A DNA stretch of 64,000 nucleotides from Thermoanaerobaculia bacterium. Its GTDB lineage: Bacteria; Acidobacteriota; Thermoanaerobaculia; UBA5066. Positions 2,991 through 46,259 of this stretch are shown piece by piece. The notes under the pieces were generated by a model that was not told the origin of the DNA, did not search any database, and was given only the letters and a program-made list of their open reading frames with translations. The position numbers and the translations under genes were made by a program. The DNA is taken from contig CAWFJJ010000001.1 in assembly GCA_963816185.1 (NCBI GenBank), positions 352,001-416,000 on the forward strand. The letters run 5' to 3'. Every line of letters starts with the position of its first letter. Position 1 is the first letter of the stretch.

Positions 2991-3326
2991 CTACGCGCGA
3001 GCCAGGCAGGGAGGGGAGCGTCCGGGAAGCTCGGGGAGAATTGGAGCGTGCTGCACGCGCTCGGCGTGAACCGGATGCGCGAGACGGATTTCGGGCGGAC
3101 TCAGGAAGAGGGGTGCGATGACCGGCGGCAGGAGGTTTGCTACCGCGCAGGCGGCGCACGGGTGCTCCTTCTCGGGCACGAACGGCGCGTGCGCGGGGTG
3201 GTCCGGCGGGAAGAGGAACGTGCCGTGCGACAGCGTCTCCAAGCCGTCGACGTGCCCGAACGCGCCGCCGAGAGCGATCGGCGCGAGGGCCGCGAGGACG
3301 ACGATCCGGAAGAGCCGCCTTTTCAT
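2991..3326 (-). CDS. DUF2946/CruR-like leader peptide with CxxC and a RAPP-like (GRSPP) arrest motif
   Basis: 111 aa with a hydrophobic N-terminus, His-rich core, HPCAAC, a Pro-rich spacer and C-terminal PGRSPP. Confidence 0.75.
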   Translation of the reverse strand: MKRRLFRIVVLAALAPIALGGAFGHVDGLETLSHGTFLFPPDHPAHAPFVPEKEHPCAACAVANLLPPVIAPLFLSPPEIRLAHPVHAERVQHAPILPELPGRSPPCLARA

Positions 3327-5426: not shown

Positions 5427-6512
5427 ATGTTGAAAAGCCGTCGCGCGTTCCTCGAGGAAGTCTCGTTCGCCTCGCTCATCGCCGGTTTTCCCCTGCCCGC
5501 CCAGGCCGCGCTCGCGCGCTACGCGGAGAGGCCGCCCGACCCCGTGTACCCGAAGGCGCTGCGGCCCGGCATGACGGTCGCGCTCGTCGCGCCCTCGTCG
5601 CCCTCTTGGAATCCCGACCGGAACGACGTCGCCGTCGAGGTCGTCGAGTCGATGGGATTCAAGGCGAAGCTGTTCCCGCACGCGCGGGAAGCCACGAACT
5701 ATCTCGCGGGAAGCGACGAGCACCGCGCCGCGGACGTGAATGCCGCGTTCGCGGATTCGTCCGTCGACGCGATCTTCTGCCTGCGCGGCGGGTACGGCGC
5801 CTCGCGCATCCTCCCGCTCCTCGACTACGAGACGATCCGGAAGAACCCGAAGGTCTTCATCGGCTACAGCGACATCACCGCCCTCCTGAACGCGATCCAC
5901 CGCCTCACGGGCCTCGTGACGTTCCACGGGCCCATCGGCGGCGAGATGCAGAGCGACTACACGCTCGCGGCGTTCAAGAAGGTGCTCTCGCAGACAAGCG
6001 CGGCCGGGCGCGTCGCCGATCCGCCGCCGTTCAAGCCCTCAGAGGGGCACGTCGACGTGGAGAACCGCATCTACAGGCTCGCTCCGGGAAAAGGGAAGGG
6101 CCGGCTCGTGGGCGGCAACATCAGCGTCTTCTCCACGCTCGTGGGAACGCCGTTCGAGCCGGAGCTCAAGGGCCGCGTCCTCTTTCTCGAGGAAGTGGGC
6201 GAAGAGCCCTACCGTATCGACCGCTGGCTCACGCAGTTCCTCCTGACGGGGAAGCTCTCGGGCCTCGCCGGCGTGGCGCTGGGGAAGTTCCACGACTGCG
6301 GCCCGAAGGACTACAAGCCGAGCTTCCCCGGCATGGGCACGTGGACGTGGCAGGAAGTCTGCCGGGACCGCCTCGGCAAGCTCGGCATCCCCGTCGTCGC
6401 GAACCTCGTCTTCGGGCACGTCACCGACAAGGCGACTCTTCCGCTCGGCGTCATGGCCGAGCTCGACGGCGACGCGGGCACGCTCACGCTGCTGGAGGCC
6501 GCGGTCCGGTGA
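5427..6512 (+). CDS. LD-carboxypeptidase (peptidase S66) with a Tat signal
   Basis: SRRAFLE twin-arginine motif plus RGGYG, GYSDIT, LFLEE and FGH catalytic motifs. Confidence 0.9.
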   Translation: MLKSRRAFLEEVSFASLIAGFPLPAQAALARYAERPPDPVYPKALRPGMTVALVAPSSPSWNPDRNDVAVEVVESMGFKAKLFPHAREATNYLAGSDEHRAADVNAAFADSSVDAIFCLRGGYGASRILPLLDYETIRKNPKVFIGYSDITALLNAIHRLTGLVTFHGPIGGEMQSDYTLAAFKKVLSQTSAAGRVADPPPFKPSEGHVDVENRIYRLAPGKGKGRLVGGNISVFSTLVGTPFEPELKGRVLFLEEVGEEPYRIDRWLTQFLLTGKLSGLAGVALGKFHDCGPKDYKPSFPGMGTWTWQEVCRDRLGKLGIPVVANLVFGHVTDKATLPLGVMAELDGDAGTLTLLEAAVR

Positions 6513-7846
6513 GGCCTACGTTCGCGAACAGCGTCCTCGCAGTGGCACTGCTGTTCTCGGGCGACCCTTCTGATATGCGGCGGCTGCTCATGCAGCCGCC
6601 GATAGACGCGAATCTTTGCCCGGATGTCCGGTGTCAAGGGCGCGCTCCGCGCGCCGCGCAGCGGTCGGAGACCCTTGACTCCGGACTTCCGGGGAAGAGC
6701 GCCGGGCCCGCCGGCGCGGCCGAGACCTTGTCCGCAGCGCGGGCGCAACTCCGCGCACTCGATGAAGTCTTCCGGCGTGAGGTGAGCGAGACCGGCGTCG
6801 TGGGGGCGGCCCTGATGGTCGTGCGAGGGAGCAAGATTCTTCTCTCTTCTTATGTCGGGCTCGCCGACCGCGAGAGGAACATCCCGGCGTCGCCCGACAC
6901 GATCTGGCACTGGGCATCGATCACGAAGACGTTCACCGGCGTGACGATCATGCAGCTCCGCGACCGCGGACGCCTCTCGCTCGACGACCCGATCGTGAAA
7001 TACGTCCCGGAGCTCGCCGCCGTGCACGACCCGTTCGGAAGCGTCTCCGAGATCAAGCTCCGGCACCTCATGACGCACAGCGCCGGGTTCCGTTCGGCGA
7101 CGTTCCCGTGGGGAGGCGACAAGGACTGGCATCCGGCCGAGCCCACCCGGTGGGAGCAGGTCGCGGCGATGCTCCCGTACACGGAGATCCTCTTTCCGCC
7201 CGGATCGAAATACTCGTATTCGAATCCGGGCGTCGTGTTCCTCGGGCGCACGATCGAGGGCCTCATGGGCGAGGACTACGAGATCACGGTCGAGAAGAAC
7301 ATCTTCAAGCCCCTCGGCATGACGCGCGCGTATTTCGACCACGCCCCCTATCACCTGGCAAAGGACGTCGCGCGGGGCTACGAGATCGAGGACGGCAAGC
7401 CCAGGCCGACGCGCGCGAACTTCGACAGCGGGATCACGGTCTCGAACGGGGGCCTGAACGCGCCGATCGGCGACCTCGCGAAGTGGATCGCCTTTCTCGC
7501 GGGAGACGGCCCGTACCCCGTCCTCGCGCGGGCGTCGCTCGAGGAGATGTGGACGCCGGTTCTCCCGACGGGGCGCGCGGGTCCGGGAACCGAGTCCGTG
7601 GGCCTCTCCTTCTTCGTCGAGGACCGGGACGGCGTGCGCTACGTCGGGCACGAGGGCGGCCAGAACGGCTTCATCAGCCATTTCTTTCTCGACCCGAAGT
7701 CGAAGCTCGGCTACGTCGTCGTCTACAACACGTCCGTCTCGGATCCGACGAAGACCTGGGACAAGAACCTCACGCGCGCGTTCGACCGTCGTCTCAAGGA
7801 TCTGATGTTCACGGGCGTCTTCCCGGCGCTCCGTGGGGAACGTTGA
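6509..7846 (+). CDS. Serine hydrolase of the beta-lactamase family, with an in-frame palindromic insertion near the N-terminus
   Basis: SxxK (WASITK), LMTHSAG, YSN and HEGG motifs. The GTG start overlaps the upstream stop. Confidence 0.85.
   Translation: MRPTFANSVLAVALLFSGDPSDMRRLLMQPPIDANLCPDVRCQGRAPRAAQRSETLDSGLPGKSAGPAGAAETLSAARAQLRALDEVFRREVSETGVVGAALMVVRGSKILLSSYVGLADRERNIPASPDTIWHWASITKTFTGVTIMQLRDRGRLSLDDPIVKYVPELAAVHDPFGSVSEIKLRHLMTHSAGFRSATFPWGGDKDWHPAEPTRWEQVAAMLPYTEILFPPGSKYSYSNPGVVFLGRTIEGLMGEDYEITVEKNIFKPLGMTRAYFDHAPYHLAKDVARGYEIEDGKPRPTRANFDSGITVSNGGLNAPIGDLAKWIAFLAGDGPYPVLARASLEEMWTPVLPTGRAGPGTESVGLSFFVEDRDGVRYVGHEGGQNGFISHFFLDPKSKLGYVVVYNTSVSDPTKTWDKNLTRAFDRRLKDLMFTGVFPALRGER
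6571..6697. repeat. Palindromic dispersed repeat, copy A (in-frame within a CDS)
   Basis: Reverse complement of 44385-44505. Long stem GTCAAGGG...CCCTTGAC plus a perfect 10-bp hairpin at 6578-6601. Confidence 0.85.
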
Positions 7847-10048: not shown

Positions 10049-10832
10049 ATGAGACACCTCCTTCAAGGAGTTCTGGCCCTCTTTCTGGCGGCTTCACCGG
10101 CCGCCGCCGACCGCGCGGTCTCGAAGACGCTGCCTCTGCCCGCCGACGGCAAGGTCACGATCGACACGTACAAGGGCAGCATCCGCGTGACGCCTTGGGA
10201 CCGTGCCGAGGTCGCGGTCGAGGCCCGGATCGTCCCGGACGACAGCTGCGGGTCGGAGCGGGACCAGAAGAAATGGGTGGACGCGACGGAAGTCGTCATC
10301 GAGCCGAGCGGCCGGAACGTGCGAATCGAGTCCGACTACGACAAGCTCGAGACGAGATGGGGCTTTTTCGGCGGCTGCACGAGCCGCCCGTTCGTCCACT
10401 ACAAGGTGAGCCTGCCGCGCGCCGCGACTCTGAAGATCCACGACTACAAGTCCGACACGGACGTCAAGGATTTCGCGGGGCGCCTCACGATCGACACGTA
10501 CAAGGGAAGCGTCTCGCTCGTCGGCCTCTCGGGCGCCCTCGACCTCAAGACCTACAAGGGCGAAGTCCGGGCGGCTTTTGCGCGCATCTCGGAAAGCGTG
10601 CGCGCCGAGACGTACAAGGGCGACGTGACCCTGACGTTCCCGGCCGCGTCGGCGTTCGAGCTGAGCGCGAATGCAGGCCGGAGAGGCGAGATCGTCTCCG
10701 ACTTCGAGGGAGTAGGGCCCGATTCGCTCGTCCCGTCGCTCGGGACTTCGCGCCTCGGCGACCGTGAACGGCGGCGGCCCGAGCGTCACGCTGTCCACGG
10801 ACAAAGGCAGACTCTCCATCCGCCGGAGCTGA
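10049..10832 (+). CDS. Exported DUF4097 beta-strand-repeat protein, frameshifted near the C-terminus
   Basis: Signal peptide and repeated (I/L)xTYKG units. The typical ending TVNGGGPSVTLSTDKGRLSIRRS* is in another frame, with the shift at about 10720-10760. Confidence 0.7.
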
Positions 10833-25096: not shown

Positions 25097-25114
25097 TCGG
25101 AGCGCGCCTCGGGA

Positions 25115-27928
25115 TCAGGGTGCAGGGATGCTCGCCTCGACGAATGCGCCGTCGCCGCTCCGCTGGCCGGGCTCGGCGCCGTCGTTGAGGACCGCATAGG
25201 CGAGGAAGGGATTGTCCCCTGAGATCCTGGTGACGAGGGCGTAGCCGCTGCTCGTGCCGGGGGCGTAAATCGCGAGGATGCGGTCGATCTGGACGAAGCC
25301 CTTCGCGGGGACGGTCGCCACGAGGGAGCCGGTTTTCGCGCCGGTAGCTCCGTCGAAGAGGTCGATGCGGAAGTTGGAAGACGAGGCATCGGCGGAGCCG
25401 GTATTGACGAGGGCGAGATTGGAGCGCGTCTCGGCATTCTGCTGGAGGCCGAAGAGCCAGGCGGTCGTCGTGGCTTCGGATCCGCTCGGCACCGCGGGCA
25501 GGAAGACGCCGTAGCGACCTCCCGTCGAGGCGGACGTGATGCGCGCCGCGATCGAGACGCCTCGCAGGTCACCGGAGTCGTCCGAAGCGAAGAGGGCGCC
25601 GGCGAACGACTCGCCGGGCGGGTCTATGACGACGTCACGATCGCGCAAGAACTGGACGAAGGCCGGAAGGATCTGCTGCTCGCCGGGGAGGAGAGAGATC
25701 GAGAAGGTCGCCTGTCCTCCCGAAAGAGAAGGAGAAACCCAGGTGAAGCGCAGCGTACGCGGTGAGGAAGAGAAATTCGTGAGGATGAGCTCGGTCGAAT
25801 ACGCCGAGGTTTCGACGAGAGCCGGCAGCGTCATCGAGGTGATCGGCAAGGCCGGGCTCGCCGCGACGGGCCCGACGAAGGAGCCATCGGACGTCGACTG
25901 ATCGTTGACGACGGCGTAGGCATAGAAAGGAGCCGTGCCGGACAGCCGTTCGACCTTCACGTAACCGTTGGAGAGCGAGAGGCCGTTCGAGACGAGGATG
26001 CCGGATATCTGCGCGAAGCCGCCGGGACGGAGCGGGACGTCGGGTAGCGTCTTTGACACGGAATTTGCCGGATCGCCGGAGAAGACGGTCAGGCGCAGCG
26101 TGATATCCCCGTCACCCGAGGAGCCCGCGTTGAGGACGGCGACGTTGGAGCGATCGGTCGAGTTCTGGCGCAGGCCGCAGAGGAAGACGGGGGAAGTCAG
26201 AAGTCTCGACGTCGGGATTCCGGCGTAAGCCAGGCCGGCGCGGCCGTTGGGCACGGCCGTGGTCGTGCGGACGGTGGCAGAGGCGGCGTCGGGGGACGAG
26301 AGGCCCGTGAAGGAGATTTGCAGCGTCCCGCCGCCCCCGGGAGACGTGAGACCGAGGCCCCCGAGGTACGCGATCACGTCGGGGATCACGTGTTGCCGGC
26401 CCGCGGGCAGAGCGTCCGTGGCCGAGCCTGCCGTCCCGCCGAAGGCCGGCGTATAGGCATAGGAGATCTGGGCATCGGTCGTGCCGCGGTTTGTGAGCGT
26501 GAGCTCGGACGTGAAGGCAGACCCGCCGAGACCGGCGGACGAGAGGACGATCGGGACGGTCAGCGTCGAGGTCGGCGCCGCCCCTTCCGCGACGAATTCG
26601 TAGTGTGAGGTTGTCAGCGTGCCGGTGACGTAGAGCCCCGCGTACACGTCTCTCTGCGTGTGGATGTGCGTGGAATCGACGTCGTCGTAGCGCCAGCCGT
26701 TGAAGCTGAAACTTCTGAGGGTCAAGTCCACGGAGAGGAATGGACAAGGTGGAGTCGGAAATTCCGTCGGCGGCTTAACGAGGTCTCCGAAGTCGCCGAC
26801 GCAGACGTCTGCGGCGACTTCATGTGGGGAGTACGCCTTGAGGTAGGAGGTCAGTTGGACGTCGTGAACGCCGCCAGGCAGACCGGCGTCAGTAACCGGC
26901 CGGGCGGACGTCGAAAGGAGAGTTGGGCCCGTTACCGGAACGGCGCGGTGGGCAGCTTCCGCGACGGCCTGTCTCGCGTCTTCGAAGGCCGACTGAACGT
27001 CGCCGTCGGAGTCGGGGGCGATGGTCGCGTTGAGAGTGACGTCGAAGACGAGGGGGCCGCCCGAGAGGCGTCCCGTGATCCGCGTCGACCACGCGTTTGT
27101 GCCGAGCGACAGCGTCGAGTCGTGCAGGACGGTGTGATGCGATGTTGACGTGCACTCGTAGTGGTTGTCGATTCCCTGGGCTCCAAAAATTATTCGCTCG
27201 AACGTGCAAGGCGGGCTCAGCCGGGCAACGACCTCGTAGTGCGACGTCGTGAGATTTCCTGTTACGAGGAGTGTGGAATAGGTGTCGGTCTGCGCGTGCG
27301 CGTGCGTGTCGTCGAGGCGGTCGGCTACCGGCGGAACGACCGAGTTGTCGGCGGCGCGCAGCTCGACCTTCCACGCGCCCGGCCCACAGCCTGGAGCCTC
27401 GGGAAGGGGAGGCGGCGGCTGGGCGAGGTCGCCGAGGTCCCCGACGCAGACGACCCGCGACGTACCCGAAGACGACTCGGAGATCTGCGTGACGAGAATC
27501 GTCGTATTCGCGACATTCGAGACAGGCTCGGACTTCACGGCGGCGATGGAGGACGACACGAGCGCCGGGCTCGACACGTCGTAACCCGTACCCGCCACGC
27601 TCAGCCTCGCGTTCGCGAGGACCGCCTGGACCGCCGGGTCGTCGGGAGGCGTGGACGGCGAGAGAGGTGCCAACAAGGAGTCGACGGTCACGTCGAAGAC
27701 ATCCGGGCTCCCCTCGCGGTGGGCCGTGATCCGCGTGCGCCAGGCGTTGACGGCGAGGTGCGTCCCGTCTACCCCCTTGGCCGTATGGCTCGAGGTCGAC
27801 CGGCAGGAGTATCGGAGTCCGGTGAACGGCGTGTTCGGCTGCTCCGAGCAAGGCGAGAATTGGGCCAGGGCCTGCTCATTCAGGACGCAGAGAGCAGCCC
27901 CCAGAAGCGCGCCGCTCAACCACCGCAT
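25115..27928 (-). CDS. Large secreted protein with two unrecognised N-terminal repeats and two C-terminal modules
   Basis: Signal peptide (…EQALA), internal duplication of an NAWxTRIT...VCVGDxGDL...THxHxQ...TTSHYE unit, and a tandem C-terminal module ending DGAFV. Confidence 0.8.
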   Translation of the reverse strand: MRWLSGALLGAALCVLNEQALAQFSPCSEQPNTPFTGLRYSCRSTSSHTAKGVDGTHLAVNAWRTRITAHREGSPDVFDVTVDSLLAPLSPSTPPDDPAVQAVLANARLSVAGTGYDVSSPALVSSSIAAVKSEPVSNVANTTILVTQISESSSGTSRVVCVGDLGDLAQPPPPLPEAPGCGPGAWKVELRAADNSVVPPVADRLDDTHAHAQTDTYSTLLVTGNLTTSHYEVVARLSPPCTFERIIFGAQGIDNHYECTSTSHHTVLHDSTLSLGTNAWSTRITGRLSGGPLVFDVTLNATIAPDSDGDVQSAFEDARQAVAEAAHRAVPVTGPTLLSTSARPVTDAGLPGGVHDVQLTSYLKAYSPHEVAADVCVGDFGDLVKPPTEFPTPPCPFLSVDLTLRSFSFNGWRYDDVDSTHIHTQRDVYAGLYVTGTLTTSHYEFVAEGAAPTSTLTVPIVLSSAGLGGSAFTSELTLTNRGTTDAQISYAYTPAFGGTAGSATDALPAGRQHVIPDVIAYLGGLGLTSPGGGGTLQISFTGLSSPDAASATVRTTTAVPNGRAGLAYAGIPTSRLLTSPVFLCGLRQNSTDRSNVAVLNAGSSGDGDITLRLTVFSGDPANSVSKTLPDVPLRPGGFAQISGILVSNGLSLSNGYVKVERLSGTAPFYAYAVVNDQSTSDGSFVGPVAASPALPITSMTLPALVETSAYSTELILTNFSSSPRTLRFTWVSPSLSGGQATFSISLLPGEQQILPAFVQFLRDRDVVIDPPGESFAGALFASDDSGDLRGVSIAARITSASTGGRYGVFLPAVPSGSEATTTAWLFGLQQNAETRSNLALVNTGSADASSSNFRIDLFDGATGAKTGSLVATVPAKGFVQIDRILAIYAPGTSSGYALVTRISGDNPFLAYAVLNDGAEPGQRSGDGAFVEASIPAP

Positions 27929-28047
27929 GCTTGAGAGTGAACGCTGGGACGGCGAACTCACGGTCACGGCCTGCGAACCCCGAGGAAACTGGTGCAGATG
28001 CATCACTTCACCGACGCAGGCCAGCTGTCGACCTCTACTCCCTCGGA

Positions 28048-28428
28048 TCAGCGCTTCTTCTTGGAAAGAAACGCGACGCCGGGGAGGCCTTCGAGATCCG
28101 CATCGGTCGTCACGAGCTCGGCGTCATGCGCCCGCGCGGTCGCGTAGACGATTGCGTCCGCCATCGCGAGCGAGTTCTCGAGGCTCGTGTCCGCGGCCTC
28201 GAGAGCGAGAGTCTCGCTCAGGGGCACGACGTTCGTCCGGAGCATCTGGGCGACGGCCAGGAGCGCATCCTCTTCGGACGCGTCGCGCTTGAGAACCTTG
28301 TAGACCTCGTAGATCGCGATCGTCGGCGTCACGATCTCCTCGGGATCGGCCAGCAGGCGGGCCACGCGATCGGCGTGCGGGCCGCCGCGAAAGACCTCGA
28401 GCCAGCCCGACGAGTCGATCAGCCTCAG
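28048..28428 (-). CDS. vapC: PIN-domain VapC toxin
   Basis: N-terminal LIDSSGWLE, IYEV, LAMADAIVYATA and LVTTDAD. Probable CTG start overlapping the antitoxin TGA. Confidence 0.85.
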   Translation of the reverse strand: MRLIDSSGWLEVFRGGPHADRVARLLADPEEIVTPTIAIYEVYKVLKRDASEEDALLAVAQMLRTNVVPLSETLALEAADTSLENSLAMADAIVYATARAHDAELVTTDADLEGLPGVAFLSKKKR

Positions 28429-28634
28429 AAGCGATCCCGCTTCTCGCGGAATCTCGTCGACCGCGTGCTCCGGGCGAAGCCCTTTAGCTCCGAGAGCGGC
28501 CGCTCCGGCACGAGTGAGATGACGCCGCCCTTGCTGACGACCTGGAACGTCTGCCCCTTTCGAAGGCCCGTTTCCTCGCGGATGTCCTTCGGAATCACGA
28601 CCTGGAACTTCGTCGAGACGACGGTGCGAGCCAC
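28425..28634 (-). CDS. AbrB/MazE-family antitoxin
   Basis: VSTKFQVVIPKDIRE motif, directly upstream of the PIN toxin. Confidence 0.85.
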   Translation of the reverse strand: MARTVVSTKFQVVIPKDIREETGLRKGQTFQVVSKGGVISLVPERPLSELKGFARSTRSTRFREKRDRF

Positions 28635-28684
28635 GAGAGGATTGTAATACGTAGTTTGTATCGACTCAAGTTTCGTAGGTTACA

Positions 28685-31531
28685 TCACGGCGCGGGGGTG
28701 CTCGCCTCGACGAATGCGCCGTCGCCGCTACGCTGGCCGGGCTCGGCGCCGTCGTTGAGGACCGCATAGGCGAGGAAGGGATTGTTGCCGGAGATCCTGG
28801 TGACGAGGGCGTAACCGCTGTTCGTGCCGGGCGCGTAATTCGCGAGGATGCGGTCGATCTGGATGAAGCCCTTCGCGGGGACGGTCGCGACGAGGGAGCC
28901 GCTCCCGGCGCCGGTGGCTCCGTCGAAGAGGTCGATGCGATAGGTGGACGGCGAAGTGTCGGCCGAACCCGTGTTGACGAGGGCGAGATTCGAGCGCGTC
29001 TCGGTGTTCTGCTGGAGGCCGAAGAGCCAGGCCGCCGTCATAGCTTCGGATCCGCTCGGAAAGGCGGGCAGGAAGACGCCGTAGCGGCCTCCCTGAGAGG
29101 CGGACGTGATGCGGGCCGCGATCGAGACTCCTCGCAGGTCGCCGGAATCGTCCGAGGCGAAGAGGGCGCCGGCGAACGATCCGCCGGGAGGGTCCGTCAC
29201 GACGCCGCGATCGCGCAGGACCTGGACGAAGGCCGGCAGGATCTGCTGCTCGCCGGGAAGGAGCGAGATCGAAAAGCCCGCCTGTCCTCCCGCCAGCGAG
29301 GCCGCGACCCACGTGAAGCGCAGCGTACGCGGTGAGGAAGAGAAGTTCGTGAGGATGAGCTCGGTCGAATACGCCGAGGTCTCGACGAGAGCCGGCAGCG
29401 TCATCGAGGAGATCGCAGAGGCAGGGCTCGCCGCGACGGGCTCGACAAACGAGCCGTCGGAAGTCGCCTGGTCGTTGATCACGGCGTAGGCGTAAAAGGG
29501 AGCCGCGCCGGAGATCCTTTCGACCCTCACCGTGCCGTTGGAGAGCGAGAGGCCGTTCGAGACGAGGATGCCGGAGATCTGCGTGAAGCCGCCGGGGGAG
29601 AGCGTGACGTCGGGAATCGTCTGCGACAGAGGGCTCGCCGAATCGCCGGAGAAGACGGTCAGGCGCAGCGTGATGTCGCCGTCGCCCGAGGCGCCAGCAT
29701 TGAGGACGGCGACGTTGGAGCGGTCGGTCGAGTTCTGGCGCAGGCCGCAGAGATAGACCGGGGAATTCAGGAGCTTCGACGGCGGGAGTCCCGCGTAGGC
29801 CAGGCCCGCACGGCCGTCGGGCACGGCGGTGGTCGTGCGGACGGTGGCGGACGCGGCGTCGGGGGACGAGAGGCCCGAGAAGGTGACTTGCAGCGTCCCG
29901 CCGCTACCAGGAGTCGTGAGGCCGAGGCTCTGGAGGTACGCGATCGCATCGGGAATGACGCGCTGCCGGCCCGCAGGCAGCGCGTCCGTGGCCGAGCCTG
30001 CAGTCCCGCCGAAGGCCGGCGTGTAGACATAGGAGATCTGCGCATCGGTCGAGCCGCGGTTCGCCAGCGTCAGCTCGGACGTGAAGGCCGACCCGCCGAG
30101 ACCGGCGGGCGAGAGGACGATCGGGACGGTCAGCGTCGATGTTGGAGCCGTCCCTTCCGCGACGAATTCCCAGTGCGAGGTCGTCAGCGTGCCGGTGACG
30201 TAGAGGCCCGCGTAGATGTCCTTCTGCGTGTGGACGTGCGTGGAGACGACGTCATCGAAGGAAAGTCGGCCCAAAGCTGTCGTCAGGAATGAGGGTCAGA
30301 AGGTGAGAGCGAAGGAACCGGATGGACACAGGCGGAGTTGCGGCAAGGCCGTCGGCGGCTGAACGAGGTCTCCGAAGTCGCCGACACAGACCTGCGTAGT
30401 TCACGAAGGAGAAGGAGTTCGCATGAGAGGAGGAGGTCAGTTGGACGACGCGCGCCGCTCCGGGCAGATAGGCGTCAGTGACCGGCCGGGCGGACGACGA
30501 AAGAAGCAGACGGGCCCGTCACCGGGACTGCGCGTGCGCAGCTTCCGCGACGGCCCGTCGCGCGTCCTCGAAGGCCGACTGAACGTCGCCGTCGGAGTCG
30601 GGGGCGATGGTCGCGTTGAGCGTGACGTCGAAGACCGGGGGGCCGCCCGAGAGGCGTCCCGTGATCCGCGTCGACCACGCGTTTGTGGCCGAGCGACAGC
30701 GTCGAGTCGTGCTGGACGGTGTGATGCGATGTCGACGTGCACTCGTAGTGGGTCCCGAAGATGTGTAAATTGCCCATGGGGGTTGCCGTCCGGCTGAACA
30801 GGTCTGTCGGCAGGCTCGGCCGGGCGACGACCTCGTAGTGCGACGTCGTGAGATTGCCTGTCACGAGGAGCGTGGAATAGGTGTCGGTCTGCGCGTGCGC
30901 GTGCGTGTCGTCGAGCCGGTCGGCTACCGGCGGAACGACCGAGCTGTCGGCGGCGCGTAGCTCGACCTTCCATGCGCCCGGCGCGCAGCCGGGAACCTCG
31001 GGTAGGGGCGGCGGCGGCTGGGCGAGGTCGCCGAGGTCCCCGACGCAGACGACCCGCGACGTACCCGAGGACGACTCGGAGATCTGCGTGACGAGAGTCG
31101 TCGTATTCGCGACATTCGAGACAGGCTCGGACTTCACGGCGGCGACGGAGGACGACACGAGCGCCGGGCTCGACACGTCGTAGCCTGTCCCGGCCACGCT
31201 CAGCCTCGCGTTCGCGAGGACCGCCTGGACCGCCGGGTCGTCGGGAGGCGTGGACGGCGAGAGAGGCGCCGACAAGGAGTCGACGGTCACGTCGAAGACA
31301 TCCGGGCTTCCCTCGCGGCGGGCCGTGATCCGCGTGCGCCAGGCGTCGACGGCGAGGTGCGTCCCGTCCAGCGCCCTTGGCCGTATGGCTCGACGTCGAC
31401 CGGCAGGAGTATCGGAGCCCGGCGAAGGGCGTGTTCGGCTGTTCCGAGCAAGGCGAGAACTGAGCCAGGGCCTGCCCGCCCAGGACGCAGAGGGCAGCCG
31501 CCAGAAGCGCGGCGCCGCTCGCCAGTTTCAC
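28685..31531 (-). pseudogene. Paralog of 25115..27928 with several frameshifts (decay or assembly error)
   Basis: Near-identical sequence split over ORFs 30437..31564, 30475..31290 and 28685..30274. Indels at about 31370, 30690 and 30280-30530. Confidence 0.75.
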
Positions 31532-43672: not shown

Positions 43673-44071
43673 TCAGGGCCAGGCGGGCAGGGAGAGGAGG
43701 CCGCTCGAAAGAACGAGCCTCAGGTCGCGATCGCGGAAAAGAAGTGCACAGCCGTTCTCCTCGGCGAGGACAGCGATGAAGCAGTCGATCGTCGATCGCA
43801 CGGTGACTCCACGCCGGCGAAGAGATCGGTAGAGATCGGCCCCTTTGAGATACGTCGACAAGCCCGAGGCCTCGAGGAACGTCATCTTCCGGAAGAACGC
43901 TTCCAGCGCCTCGCGTTCGCGTCGAATCCCCTGAAACACCTCGGCCACGACGATACCGCACGTGCAGACGTCATCTTCGCCTGCGAGGAGTCGGTCTACG
44001 GCGAGGGCCTCGGACGAACCAGTCCCGTTCAGGAACTCAACCCATGCCGAGGTGTCGACGAGGACCCTCAC
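43673..44071 (-). CDS. vapC: PIN-domain VapC toxin
   Basis: VLVDTSAW, AEVFQG, STIDCFIA and DRD motifs. Confidence 0.9.
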   Translation of the reverse strand: MRVLVDTSAWVEFLNGTGSSEALAVDRLLAGEDDVCTCGIVVAEVFQGIRREREALEAFFRKMTFLEASGLSTYLKGADLYRSLRRRGVTVRSTIDCFIAVLAEENGCALLFRDRDLRLVLSSGLLSLPAWP

Positions 44072-44274
44072 GACGGCCGGGGCCGCCTCTTCCGGAGCGC
44101 GTCGAGGTCGCCCTGCCAGCCGATCTTGCCCGCGAGTCTCCGCAGGCCACGCAGCGCGCGCCGGCGCGCGTAATCGCGCAGCGCGTCGTTGATCACGGCC
44201 GTCTTCGTCTTTCCAGGGTCCGTCTTCAGCGCTGCCGCGAGGGCCTCGTCGTCGATGTTCAGCGTCGTCCTCAT
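44068..44274 (-). CDS. vapB: VapB antitoxin (RHH)
   Basis: MRTTLNIDDE...TKTAVINDALR...WQGDL motif. GTGA overlap with vapC. Confidence 0.9.
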   Translation of the reverse strand: MRTTLNIDDEALAAALKTDPGKTKTAVINDALRDYARRRALRGLRRLAGKIGWQGDLDALRKRRPRPS

Positions 44275-44282
44275 GATCTGCC

Positions 44283-44322
44283 TCTCGATGCAGATTCTAG
44301 CAGCCAGATGTCTGCATCAAGA
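44283..44322 (-). promoter_or_regulatory. Inverted repeat over the vapBC -10 box, probable autoregulatory operator
   Basis: TCTCGATGCAGA (44283-94) and TCTGCATCAAGA (44311-22) match 11/12 and flank minus-strand TAGAAT. Confidence 0.55.
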
Positions 44323-44339
44323 GAAGAAGATATATCTAC

Positions 44340-44505
44340 TATCGGTGGCCCGCATTCGCGGGCCACCCGGAGATGGAAGGTGTCTCCCGAATGACCGATG
44401 TCAAGGGTCTTCGACCGCTGCGCGGCGCGCGGAGCGCGCCCTTGACTTCGGCCATTCGGGAAAAGATTTCGCTCTCCGGCGGCGGCGAATGCCGCCGCCG
44501 ATATA
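44340..44505. repeat. Palindromic dispersed repeat, copy B (intergenic, REPIN/MITE-like)
   Basis: Two inverted 10-bp hairpins (44344-44367 loop ATTC and 44477-44500 loop GAAT) flank a long GTCAAGGG...CCCTTGAC stem. Matches 6571-6697. Confidence 0.85.
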
Positions 44506-44531
44506 AGCAAAGAACCCTCTTGGTCCCCGCC

Positions 44532-46259
44532 CTACAGCACCGTCTCCCTCACGACCTCCTCGATCGACGTCATGCCGTCCTTGATCTTCTGGAGGCCCGA
44601 GCGCCGAAGGGAGACCATGCCCTCCTCGAGACCCTTTCTCTTGATCTCGATGGAGGACGCGCCCGAGAGAATGAGCTCGCGGATCTCCTCGGAGATCTCG
44701 AGCACCTCGACGAGGGCGACGCGGCCCTTGTAGCCGGTGTTGTTGCACTTCTCGCAGCCCTTGCCCTTCATGACCCGGATGCTCTTGGCGTCCTCGGCCG
44801 TGAACCCGAGCGACACGAGGACCTGGGGGGCGACCTCCGTGGGGCCCTTGCAGGCCGCGCACACGCGGCGGATCAGGCGCTGCGCCGCGATGAGGACGAC
44901 CGACGTCGCGACGAGGTACGGCTCGATGCCCATGTTCATGAGACGGTTGATCGTGGAGGGCGCGTCGTTCGTGTGGAGAGTCGAGAGGACGAGGTGGCCG
45001 GTCAGCGCCGCCTTGACCGCGATCTCGGCCGTCTCGAAGTCGCGGATCTCGCCGACGAGGATGATGTTCGGGTCCTGTCTCAGGAACGACCGCAGCGCGG
45101 CCGCGAAGTTGAGCCCGATCTGGTCCTTCATCTGGACCTGGTTGATACCCGGCAGGTTGAACTCGACCGGATCCTCGGCCGTGATGATGTTCGTCTCGGG
45201 CGTGTTGATGCGCGAGAGGGCCGAGTAAAGCGTGTTCGTCTTGCCCGAGCCGGTCGGCCCCGTCACGAGGACCATGCCCCACGGCCGCAGGATGGCCTTC
45301 TCGAACTTCAGGAGGCTGTCCTTCTCGAACCCCAGCTTCGTCATGTCGAGCATGAGGTTGTCCTTGTCGAGGAGGCGGCAGACGATCTTCTCGCCGAAGA
45401 GCGTCGGAAGGACCGAGACGCGGTAGTCGAGCTCCTTCACCTTGCCCGTGAGCTTCATCTTGATCTTGATGCGCCCGTCCTGAGGCAGGCGCTTCTCGGC
45501 GATGTCGAGCTTCGCGAGGATCTTGATGCGCGAGGCGATGGCCTCCTTGAGCTTCGGTGGCGGGTTCATGACCTCGTAGAGGATGCCGTCTATGCGGTAA
45601 CGCACGCGGTACTCGCGCTCGTAGGGCTCGATGTGGATGTCCGAGGCGCCGCGCTTGATGGCGTCCGTGAGGATGATGTTCACGAGGCGGATGACGGGGG
45701 CCTCCTCGCCCTCATCGACGAGCTTCTCGAGGTCGATCATCGCCTCTTCGGATTCCTCGACGACCTCGAGCGTCGTGTCGGCCGTGTCCGTGACCGACAT
45801 CTCCTCCATGACCTTCTTGAGCTCGAGGGCGTGAGTCGCGCCGTAATGCTTGTCGATCGCGAGCTGGAGCGCGGCCTCGGACGCGACGACAGGCTCGACG
45901 TTGTACCCCGTCATGAACTTGATGTCGTCCATGGCGAAGACGTTCGTCGGGTCGGCCATCGCGATCGTGATCGTCGCGCCGGTCTTGTTGACGGGAAGGA
46001 TGTTGTATTTGCGTGCGACGTCGGCGGCGACGAGCTTGAGGACGGCCGGGTCGATCTCGAAATGCGAGAGGTTGATCGACGGGACACCGAACTGCGCCGA
46101 GAGCGTCTCCGTGATGTCGTCTTCCGTGATGTGGCCGAGCTTGACGAGAGCTTCTCCGAGCTTCATCCCCGAGGACTGCACTTCCTTGAGCGCCTCCTGG
46201 AGCTGCTCGTTCGAGATTAGCTTCGACTTGACGAGAAGGTCCCCCAGCTTCACGGCCAT
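44532..46259 (-). CDS. pilB: Type IV pilus assembly ATPase
   Basis: MshEN-like KLGDLLV/KLGEALV, ASDIHIEP, GPTGSGKT, LRQDP and a Cys zinc motif. Confidence 0.95.
   Translation of the reverse strand: MAVKLGDLLVKSKLISNEQLQEALKEVQSSGMKLGEALVKLGHITEDDITETLSAQFGVPSINLSHFEIDPAVLKLVAADVARKYNILPVNKTGATITIAMADPTNVFAMDDIKFMTGYNVEPVVASEAALQLAIDKHYGATHALELKKVMEEMSVTDTADTTLEVVEESEEAMIDLEKLVDEGEEAPVIRLVNIILTDAIKRGASDIHIEPYEREYRVRYRIDGILYEVMNPPPKLKEAIASRIKILAKLDIAEKRLPQDGRIKIKMKLTGKVKELDYRVSVLPTLFGEKIVCRLLDKDNLMLDMTKLGFEKDSLLKFEKAILRPWGMVLVTGPTGSGKTNTLYSALSRINTPETNIITAEDPVEFNLPGINQVQMKDQIGLNFAAALRSFLRQDPNIILVGEIRDFETAEIAVKAALTGHLVLSTLHTNDAPSTINRLMNMGIEPYLVATSVVLIAAQRLIRRVCAACKGPTEVAPQVLVSLGFTAEDAKSIRVMKGKGCEKCNNTGYKGRVALVEVLEISEEIRELILSGASSIEIKRKGLEEGMVSLRRSGLQKIKDGMTSIEEVVRETVL

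Follow-up and report, generated by a model that had tools for sequence, protein, structure and literature searches.

A dispersed, hairpin-forming repeat probably inserted in frame into a serine hydrolase gene of a Thermoanaerobaculia bacterium carries a core common to several phyla

Our analyses of a 64,000-nt stretch of DNA from a Thermoanaerobaculia bacterium (hereafter the window; assembly GCA_963816185.1, contig CAWFJJ010000001.1, positions 352,001 to 416,000) revealed two copies of a palindromic repeat, one of which (copy A) lies inside a serine hydrolase gene of the PF00144 family and the other (copy B) between genes. The explanation that we favor, and regard as probable, is that a copy of a dispersed repeat, belonging to a family of the repetitive extragenic palindrome (REP), Rickettsia palindromic element (RPE) or miniature inverted-repeat transposable element (MITE) kind, entered the hydrolase gene in frame and is likely translated there. 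The two copies would thereby represent a dispersed, non-coding, hairpin-forming repeat that is common in Thermoanaerobaculia (Acidobacteriota) genomes. Copy A would have entered the 5′ part of the gene for this secreted enzyme, between the signal peptide and the linker before the catalytic domain, as an insert that is a multiple of three and sits in its own only stop-free sense frame, so that the hydrolase gene stays open. The product would most likely be a pre-protein with ∼45 extra, unstructured N-terminal residues, and the element would spread by transposition, probably via a single-stranded DNA (ssDNA) hairpin form.

The regions that hold the two copies are reverse complements of each other, as a first-pass annotation of this DNA had stated for the hydrolase region and positions 44385-44505. 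Specifically, the arms at 6611-6693 and 44386-44468 are 87% complementary over 83 nt, and they share a 47-nt core, located at 6633-6679 (+) in copy A and 44400-44446 (−) in copy B, in which a G/A position is the sole difference, exactly the one-base difference that had been claimed. None of 100 shuffles gave any such core match. An nhmmer profile of 20 related copies placed the full element of copy A at 6564-6699 (+) (∼136 nt, E 5.4e-42) and that of copy B at 44373-44522 (−) (E 3.8e-37). The earlier extents, 6571-6697 and 44385-44505, were thus correct in location and slightly too narrow. The same profile revealed no third full copy in the 64-kb window.

The element consists of a first hairpin (HP1), a spacer of ∼12 nt and a second hairpin (HP2). 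HP1, at 6578-6601 (+) in copy A, was identified by folding and is kept in the family alignment; its GC stem spans 10 bp and closes a 4-nt loop, GATAG comes next, and one of its pairs is compensatory relative to copy B. In the family alignment it is flanked by ATATG on its 5′ side and (G)ATAG on its 3′ side. A weak partial profile match to HP1 (E 0.036) at 10319-10388 (−), within an open reading frame (ORF) with a DUF4097 domain, is probably due to chance. HP2, at 6613-6698 (+) in copy A, was assigned by folding and by pair counts on 30 copies. Its outer stem of 13 pairs varies in sequence between copies and encloses an invariant 8-bp inner stem, GTCAAGGG/CCCTTGAC, which leads to a T-shaped center formed by two small hairpins and an unpaired TCGNAGA. 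The HP2 of copy A has a fold energy of −81.1 kcal/mol (z −6.3), and the folds of both strands are much more stable than those of shuffled sequences (z −6.3 to −8.8). Across 30 Thermoanaerobaculia-type copies, 96.6% of cells were paired, compared to 88.8% in shuffles, and changes on both sides of a pair were found in 70 cells versus 22 in shuffles, affecting eight outer-stem pairs. The covariation score was reached by 0 of 500 shuffles, and slid controls paired at only 29-43%.

Such stable folds (z −6.3 and −8.8), together with compensatory changes in both hairpins and a core that is conserved across phyla, might also speak for a structured RNA, that is, a cis-regulatory element or a small RNA gene rather than a mobile DNA repeat. 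We consider this quite improbable. No Rfam 15 family matched the window or 20 related loci at the gathering threshold, and a search of region 44200-44700 in E-value mode gave sub-threshold noise only. Moreover, both strands fold equally well, and the 18 G-T pairs of the outer stem, set against 11 A-C pairs, do not form a clear enough excess to mark one strand as transcribed, although a comparison of this kind is not decisive. The copies occur in both orientations and in several frames of ORFs, with the core flipped in some, and their small hairpins carry GCGNAGC-type sequences or the complement of these, a motif described as stable in DNA (PMC13037366, PMC3201870). Promoter and terminator scans around both window copies placed neither signal on the element. 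The idea that it acts as an outward promoter, with TTGAC in the stem and a TA-rich right end, received no support from the window copies and was set aside.

To place the two copies in a wider family, we scanned one genome per species with the outer 10 and 11 core bases fixed and a free center of 20-30 nt. The core frame was present at at least 114 loci (L001-L114, most with the core at ∼1501-1550 of the locus), where our own arithmetic, assuming uniform composition, gives an expectation of ∼3 by chance. Because the search itself fixed 21 bases, their conservation is built in, and the result lies in the number of matches and in the features that surround them; the fixed bases also mean that diverged copies are missed, such as a second copy in a uvrA gene described below. 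Thirty copies, including both from the window, have the full Thermoanaerobaculia-type layout, and the addition of copies in L006, L075 and the second copy in L070 gives 33. Four single assemblies contain at least five, four, four and three loci, respectively. Hence the Thermoanaerobaculia-type repeat, with at least 33 copies and several per genome, extends well beyond the two copies on which the first-pass annotation was built.

The gene that harbors copy A (6509-7846 (+)) encodes 445 residues from a GTG at 6509, a call shared by P0002 in the protein collection, and its PF00144 domain spans residues 84-413 (E 1.3e-66). The GTG overlaps the stop codon of an upstream S66 LD-carboxypeptidase gene. 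The ORF runs from this GTG through the element without a stop, and the element encodes approximately residues 20-64. An in-frame read-through had been proposed before, and we indeed obtained the quoted peptide, which comes to ∼45 aa rather than ∼42. In an alignment of 23 sequences, the window protein keeps the shared residue in all 111 invariant columns, among them S137, K140, Y237, N239, H381 and G383, of which we take the first four to be the catalytic SxxK and YxN motifs of the PF00144 family. An AlphaFold2 model calculated on this alignment gave predicted local distance difference test (pLDDT) values <50 for residues 1-68. The fold starts at residue 69, placing the insert outside the enzyme fold.

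None of the 22 aligned homologs contains the element-encoded segment, including P0003 and P0004, which are 90% and 87% identical to the window protein, respectively. Ahead of the first conserved helix there are 79 residues in the window protein and 18-57 in 21 of the 22 homologs; the remaining one, P0074, has 82, in an extension unrelated to the element. The sequence that follows the element aligns with homologs just past their signal peptide and short linker, with z values of 4.5-20.4 for the eight homologs tested (10.7-20.4 in seven of them). A phmmer search with the 45-aa element peptide against 1.84 billion representatives returned seven matches at E ≤ 0.001, mostly short ORFs or low-complexity sequences; this search was uninformative, probably because clusters are represented by proteins that lack the insert. 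These data bear on the alternative of an ancestral hydrolase segment that other lineages have lost. The N-terminal linker does vary widely in length in this family (18-82 residues). The same DNA, however, recurs 38 kb away at an intergenic, unrelated site and within unrelated genes of other genomes, its GC content by codon position (0.73/0.58/0.71) is unlike coding sequence here, and the segment is missing from every homolog aligned. An ancestral origin is therefore scarcely credible and already close to refuted.

To determine where the family resides relative to genes, we classified the 33 copies. Ten lie inside an ORF with recognized domains around them (the hydrolase, three dnaE, two uvrA, three CHAT and one MobA-like), five abut a gene start (L032, L037, L044, L057 and L090), nine are intergenic, including copy B, and nine, with flanks of only 300 nt, were unclassifiable. 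In dnaE, the element is present in frame and at the same site in three assemblies (L075 723-3047 (−), L006 718-2442 (−) and L099 1-645 (−)), where the protein has ∼69 residues more than Escherichia coli DnaE, between chain residues 819 and 831. In the uvrA gene of L070 (784-3045 (+)), an in-frame copy corresponds to ∼35 residues that are extra compared to Thermotoga maritima UvrA (E 3e-178), and a second copy is found downstream in this open frame, at the end of the locus. A DUF7379-CHAT protein contains the element in frame in three assemblies (L015, L051 and L080), as does a MobA-like NTP transferase, whose domain match spans the insert. These in-frame copies bear out the proposal, made from the window alone, of a repeat family that adds sequence to proteins of this lineage.

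The encoded peptides differ among the window hydrolase, L075, L006, L070 and L015/L080, since neither the frame nor the orientation in which the element is read is the same throughout. In a typical copy about two of the six frames are open, and which ones are open varies between copies, so an open reading through the element is not automatic. Taken together, the differing peptides and the limited number of open frames indicate that selection kept the frame and its openness, not the peptide. The inserted peptide thus looks like a passenger, since the family conserves a DNA hairpin and not an amino acid sequence. The insert in the hydrolase is presumably both translated and tolerated.

One of the copies that abut a gene start deserves separate mention. 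In L037 (∼1470-1550), a PNP_UDP_1 (MTAP-like) gene shares its reading frame with a TTG in the 3′ arm of the conserved stem, and its conserved N-terminus begins a few codons past this TTG. The element may supply the start codon of this gene.

The evidence for insertion into the hydrolase gene must be weighed against the account in which copy A is effectively intergenic, with the real start of the hydrolase downstream (for example at TTG 6728) or the gene decaying, and the open frame reflecting luck and extension by the gene caller. Several observations count in favor of this account or otherwise against an in-frame mobile insertion. Fourteen of the 24 classifiable copies (nine intergenic and five at gene starts) are not inside genes, and for the source genome only the two copies within the 64-kb window were seen. 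Gene callers also swallow copies upstream of true starts. Two LolA-like proteins, P0125 and P0126, which are two of the three candidates from a word-indexed search with the peptide region, start at an ATG inside HP1 and run through the element, with a signal peptide only afterwards, and the ORF of an FMN_bind protein in L032 (919-1662 (−)) is likewise extended into an upstream copy. All three are probably N-terminal over-extensions by the gene caller, and they provide the main caution on N-terminal cases such as the window hydrolase. In the window, the in-frame TTG at 6728 could start a signal-less hydrolase, and the Shine-Dalgarno-like GGAGG (6494-6498) lies 10 nt from the GTG, a rather long spacing. 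The 19 residues before the element resemble the signal peptides of homologs only weakly (z ∼2, with 8 of 200 shuffles reaching the P0003 score), and two arginines, which could hinder export, come after the hydrophobic stretch. Regarding mobility, no transposase domain was found in the 46 window ORFs, nor was a transposase found beside the 19 Thermoanaerobaculia-type loci with long flanks, and there was no clear direct repeat indicative of a target-site duplication at the dnaE junctions. Finally, a study of intragenic REPs cautions that N-terminal cases may be misannotations (PMC3733652).

We nevertheless judge this account unlikely, though not negligible. The LolA-like and FMN_bind proteins have their signal peptide after the element, whereas in the window protein the signal-like stretch (6509-6565 (+)) precedes it, in the position of the homologs' signal peptides, and nothing hydrophobic comes after the element. 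Homologs with a complete N-terminus start with such a hydrophobic stretch, and a downstream start would leave an enzyme without the signal peptide that they have. The 19 codons before the element have GC contents by codon position of 0.63/0.47/0.84, the third-position value in particular being like that of genes here, in agreement with the earlier suggestion that the element lies right after a signal peptide. In addition, two of the three sense frames of copy A are closed by stop codons, and the hydrolase is read in the remaining one. Last, that genes can tolerate reading through the element is shown by the internal copies lying in frame within dnaE and uvrA. In-frame insertion into the hydrolase gene therefore remains the preferred reading.

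Comparison of the copies showed that in 7 of 30 the asymmetric core has the opposite orientation with respect to the HP1 side. In dnaE, L075 and L006 have similar flanks and outer stems with the core flipped between them, and the frame is open in both. The same was observed for the CHAT protein when L015 was compared to L051 and L080. Because the flanks and outer stems match around the flipped core, the inversion occurs in place. No more than template switching or recombination between the two arms of the stem would be needed for this, and inversion of hairpins through their stem arms is a known behavior in plastid DNA.

The predicted hairpins of the core have a distinctive loop composition. 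For the 93 distinct cores, 159 hairpin loops were predicted, of which 99 are triloops; 66 of the 159 are G-N-A or T-N-C loops, compared to 30 of 1184 in shuffles. GCGNAGC or its complement occurs in 60 of 93 cores (400 of 9300 shuffles), and both occur together in 22 of 93 (3 of 9300 shuffles). As described in two reports, GCGNAGC forms an unusually stable DNA mini-hairpin and is found at the single-strand priming sites of phages G4, St-1 and alpha3, in ssiA of RSF1010 and in the hairpin promoter of phage N4 (PMC13037366, PMC3201870). Thus, the mini-hairpins, the lack of strand bias, the occurrence in both orientations, the flips and the mobile-element neighborhoods (below) point to a structure that would act in ssDNA.

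The core is not confined to Thermoanaerobaculia. Loci with the core frame were found in Acidobacteriota, Alpha- and Gammaproteobacteria, Myxococcota, Actinomycetota, Firmicutes, Spirochaetota, Bacteroidota and Chloroflexota, and each lineage embeds the core in its own larger hairpin or repeat. The 12-nt flanks of the core are complementary at 10 or more of 12 positions in 50 of 111 loci, compared to 2.7% with swapped partners. Xanthobacteraceae assemblies contain several copies of the core in lineage-specific repeats. In an Acidoferrales assembly, a core-bearing repeat of ∼290 bp occurs three times with 98-99.6% identity (L010 1394-1699, L052 and L081), and the near identity of these copies suggests recent spread. 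This sharing of a core by several phyla is the unusual trait of the family. The core was undescribed in the literature that we searched, where its first ten bases matched only unrelated primers.

Genes of mobile elements, among them integrases, IS110 transposases and relaxases, and of toxin-antitoxin systems recur beside the core. Loci of the Acidobacteriaceae type (L016, L018, L026, L030, L008, L022, L066 and L027 among those listed) have conserved flanks, and a tyrosine integrase gene starts ∼320 nt from their core; four of them also have an AbiEi gene beside the core. In loci of the gp2/Acidoferrales type (L010, L017, L040, L023, L071, L045 and L059 among those listed), the core is a few hundred nucleotides from IS110-family transposase genes, and in L059 it is located between two of them. 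The core could be an insertion target, or a part, of these integrase and IS110 elements. Other neighbors include HipA, Gp49, AbiEi, ArdC, TnsA-like, TrwB and Replic_Relax genes; in L009, from a Pseudolabrys assembly, the core lies between the gene for a TrwB-like coupling protein and a Replic_Relax gene. BLAST searches of plasmids and phages with the element and two core variants recovered two Mycobacterium plasmids and one weak match to a Thauera plasmid, while the Xanthobacteraceae core variant gave no match in plasmids or phages. In the two 15.9-kb mobilizable MOBF plasmids, from M. intracellulare (L115 3001-3050) and M. lentiflavum, a core variant is positioned 372 nt downstream of mobF.

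These features led us to consider a broader and more speculative reading, which, taken as a whole, we think has a rather small chance of being right. It holds that the 41-51-nt core, comprising the GTCAAGGG/CCCTTGAC stem, one or two mini-hairpins and the unpaired TCGNAGA, would be an undescribed cross-phylum ssDNA signal. As such it could be a priming site of the single-strand initiation (ssi) kind, a nicking site or a hairpin promoter for a conserved mobile-element enzyme. Repeat families of several phyla would have picked up the core and would depend on it for their spread, and hairpin nicking and copying, rather than passive inversion, could have left the flip and flop forms as their trace. 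The Thermoanaerobaculia element would, on this reading, be a chromosomal, gene-invading branch of a much wider class, and a core that functions as an ssDNA signal would be of wider interest.

Comparison with known systems helps to classify the in-frame repeat. According to PMC10969869, RPEs are palindromes of ∼100-150 bp that are located between genes and in frame in unrelated housekeeping genes, whose products gain tens of residues while the gene survives, and bacterial MITEs have occasionally been fused in frame to ORFs. The Thermoanaerobaculia element is likewise a palindromic repeat of ∼100-150 bp found in frame inside protein-coding genes, a likeness drawn from published descriptions of RPEs. 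Its hosts differ, being free-living Acidobacteriota with 68% GC. RPEs are also reported to encode a conserved peptide, whereas our element has no conserved frame or peptide, and it contains a T-shaped core common to several phyla.

With REPs and bacterial interspersed mosaic elements, the family shares short GC-rich hairpins that are present in multiple copies, in inverted pairs or mosaics, and also within genes. Di Nocera et al. 2013 described intragenic REPs in uvrA (sometimes twice), uvrB, dnaE and dnaE2, and left the bias unexplained (PMC3733652). Our family, too, is found in dnaE and uvrA, including two copies in one uvrA. It differs from GTAG/CGTC REPs in that neither tag is present at the ends of HP1, which is followed by (G)ATAG, and no transposase of the REP-associated tyrosine transposase (RAYT) type was found among the 46 window ORFs or in the flanks of the Thermoanaerobaculia-type loci. 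Its unit, at 136-200 nt, is also larger, with a three-way core that is conserved. Like Correia, ERIC and other MITEs, the element is small, non-coding, multicopy and hairpin-forming, and the 98-99.6% identity of the Acidoferrales 290-bp core repeat is a possible sign of recent spread. However, terminal inverted repeats, formed by a forward and a reverse HP1 whose outer ends are similar, are present only in a three-hairpin form and are absent from the 136-nt window form, and the dnaE junctions are without a clear direct repeat. Since no GTAG/CGTC tag, conserved peptide frame, RAYT or target duplication was seen, we file the element as a new REP/RPE-like family.

The T-shaped center has a structural parallel in parvovirus inverted terminal repeats (ITRs), which are T-shaped hairpin ends that occur in flip and flop forms. 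Both have a long stem with two small internal hairpins and a center in either orientation, but this is a structural analogy only, and the element occupies internal chromosomal sites, not genome ends. The mini-hairpin motif is also that of ssDNA signals of mobile replicons, such as those of phage G4, ssiA and ssiB of RSF1010 and the hairpin promoters of phage N4, as presented in PMC13037366, a resemblance that would be one of analogy; the core adjoins relaxase or coupling-protein genes in L009 and in the two Mycobacterium MOBF plasmids.

If our favored explanation is correct, it would extend in-frame palindromic insertion of the Rickettsia type to free-living, high-GC Acidobacteriota of soil and sediment, with hosts that include dnaE and uvrA, and it fits the earlier, unexplained gathering of intragenic palindromes in replication and repair genes. 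For annotation, this element would often be the source of unusual insertions and extended N-termini in proteins from Thermoanaerobaculia. For protein evolution, it would provide a case in which a parasite at the DNA level creates new linker segments.

Copy B (44373-44522 (−)) lies between a pilB-like ATPase gene (44532-46259 (−)) and a vapB-vapC pair (44068-44274 and 43673-44071 (−)), as assigned by Pfam. Just after it, at 44336-44367 (−), an HP1-like hairpin was read from the sequence, with secondary nhmmer matches on the other strand; it is followed by GATAG and a spacer-like stretch without an HP2, and the vapBC pair begins ∼60 nt past it. Copy B and the adjoining hairpin form a mosaic arrangement, and the same HP1-HP2-HP1 layout was evident in L006, L075 and L096.

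The window contains two further repeats. Positions 25114-31515 hold a tandem duplication with a period of ∼3.6 kb and long stretches of 89-96% identity, which covers large minus-strand ORFs without a Pfam match and has a PIN-domain gene (28051-28365) between its units. In addition, a direct repeat of 161 nt occurs twice (113-273 and 3139-3299), with 93% identity and a distance of 3 kb between the copies, at the 3′ ends of two minus-strand ORFs.

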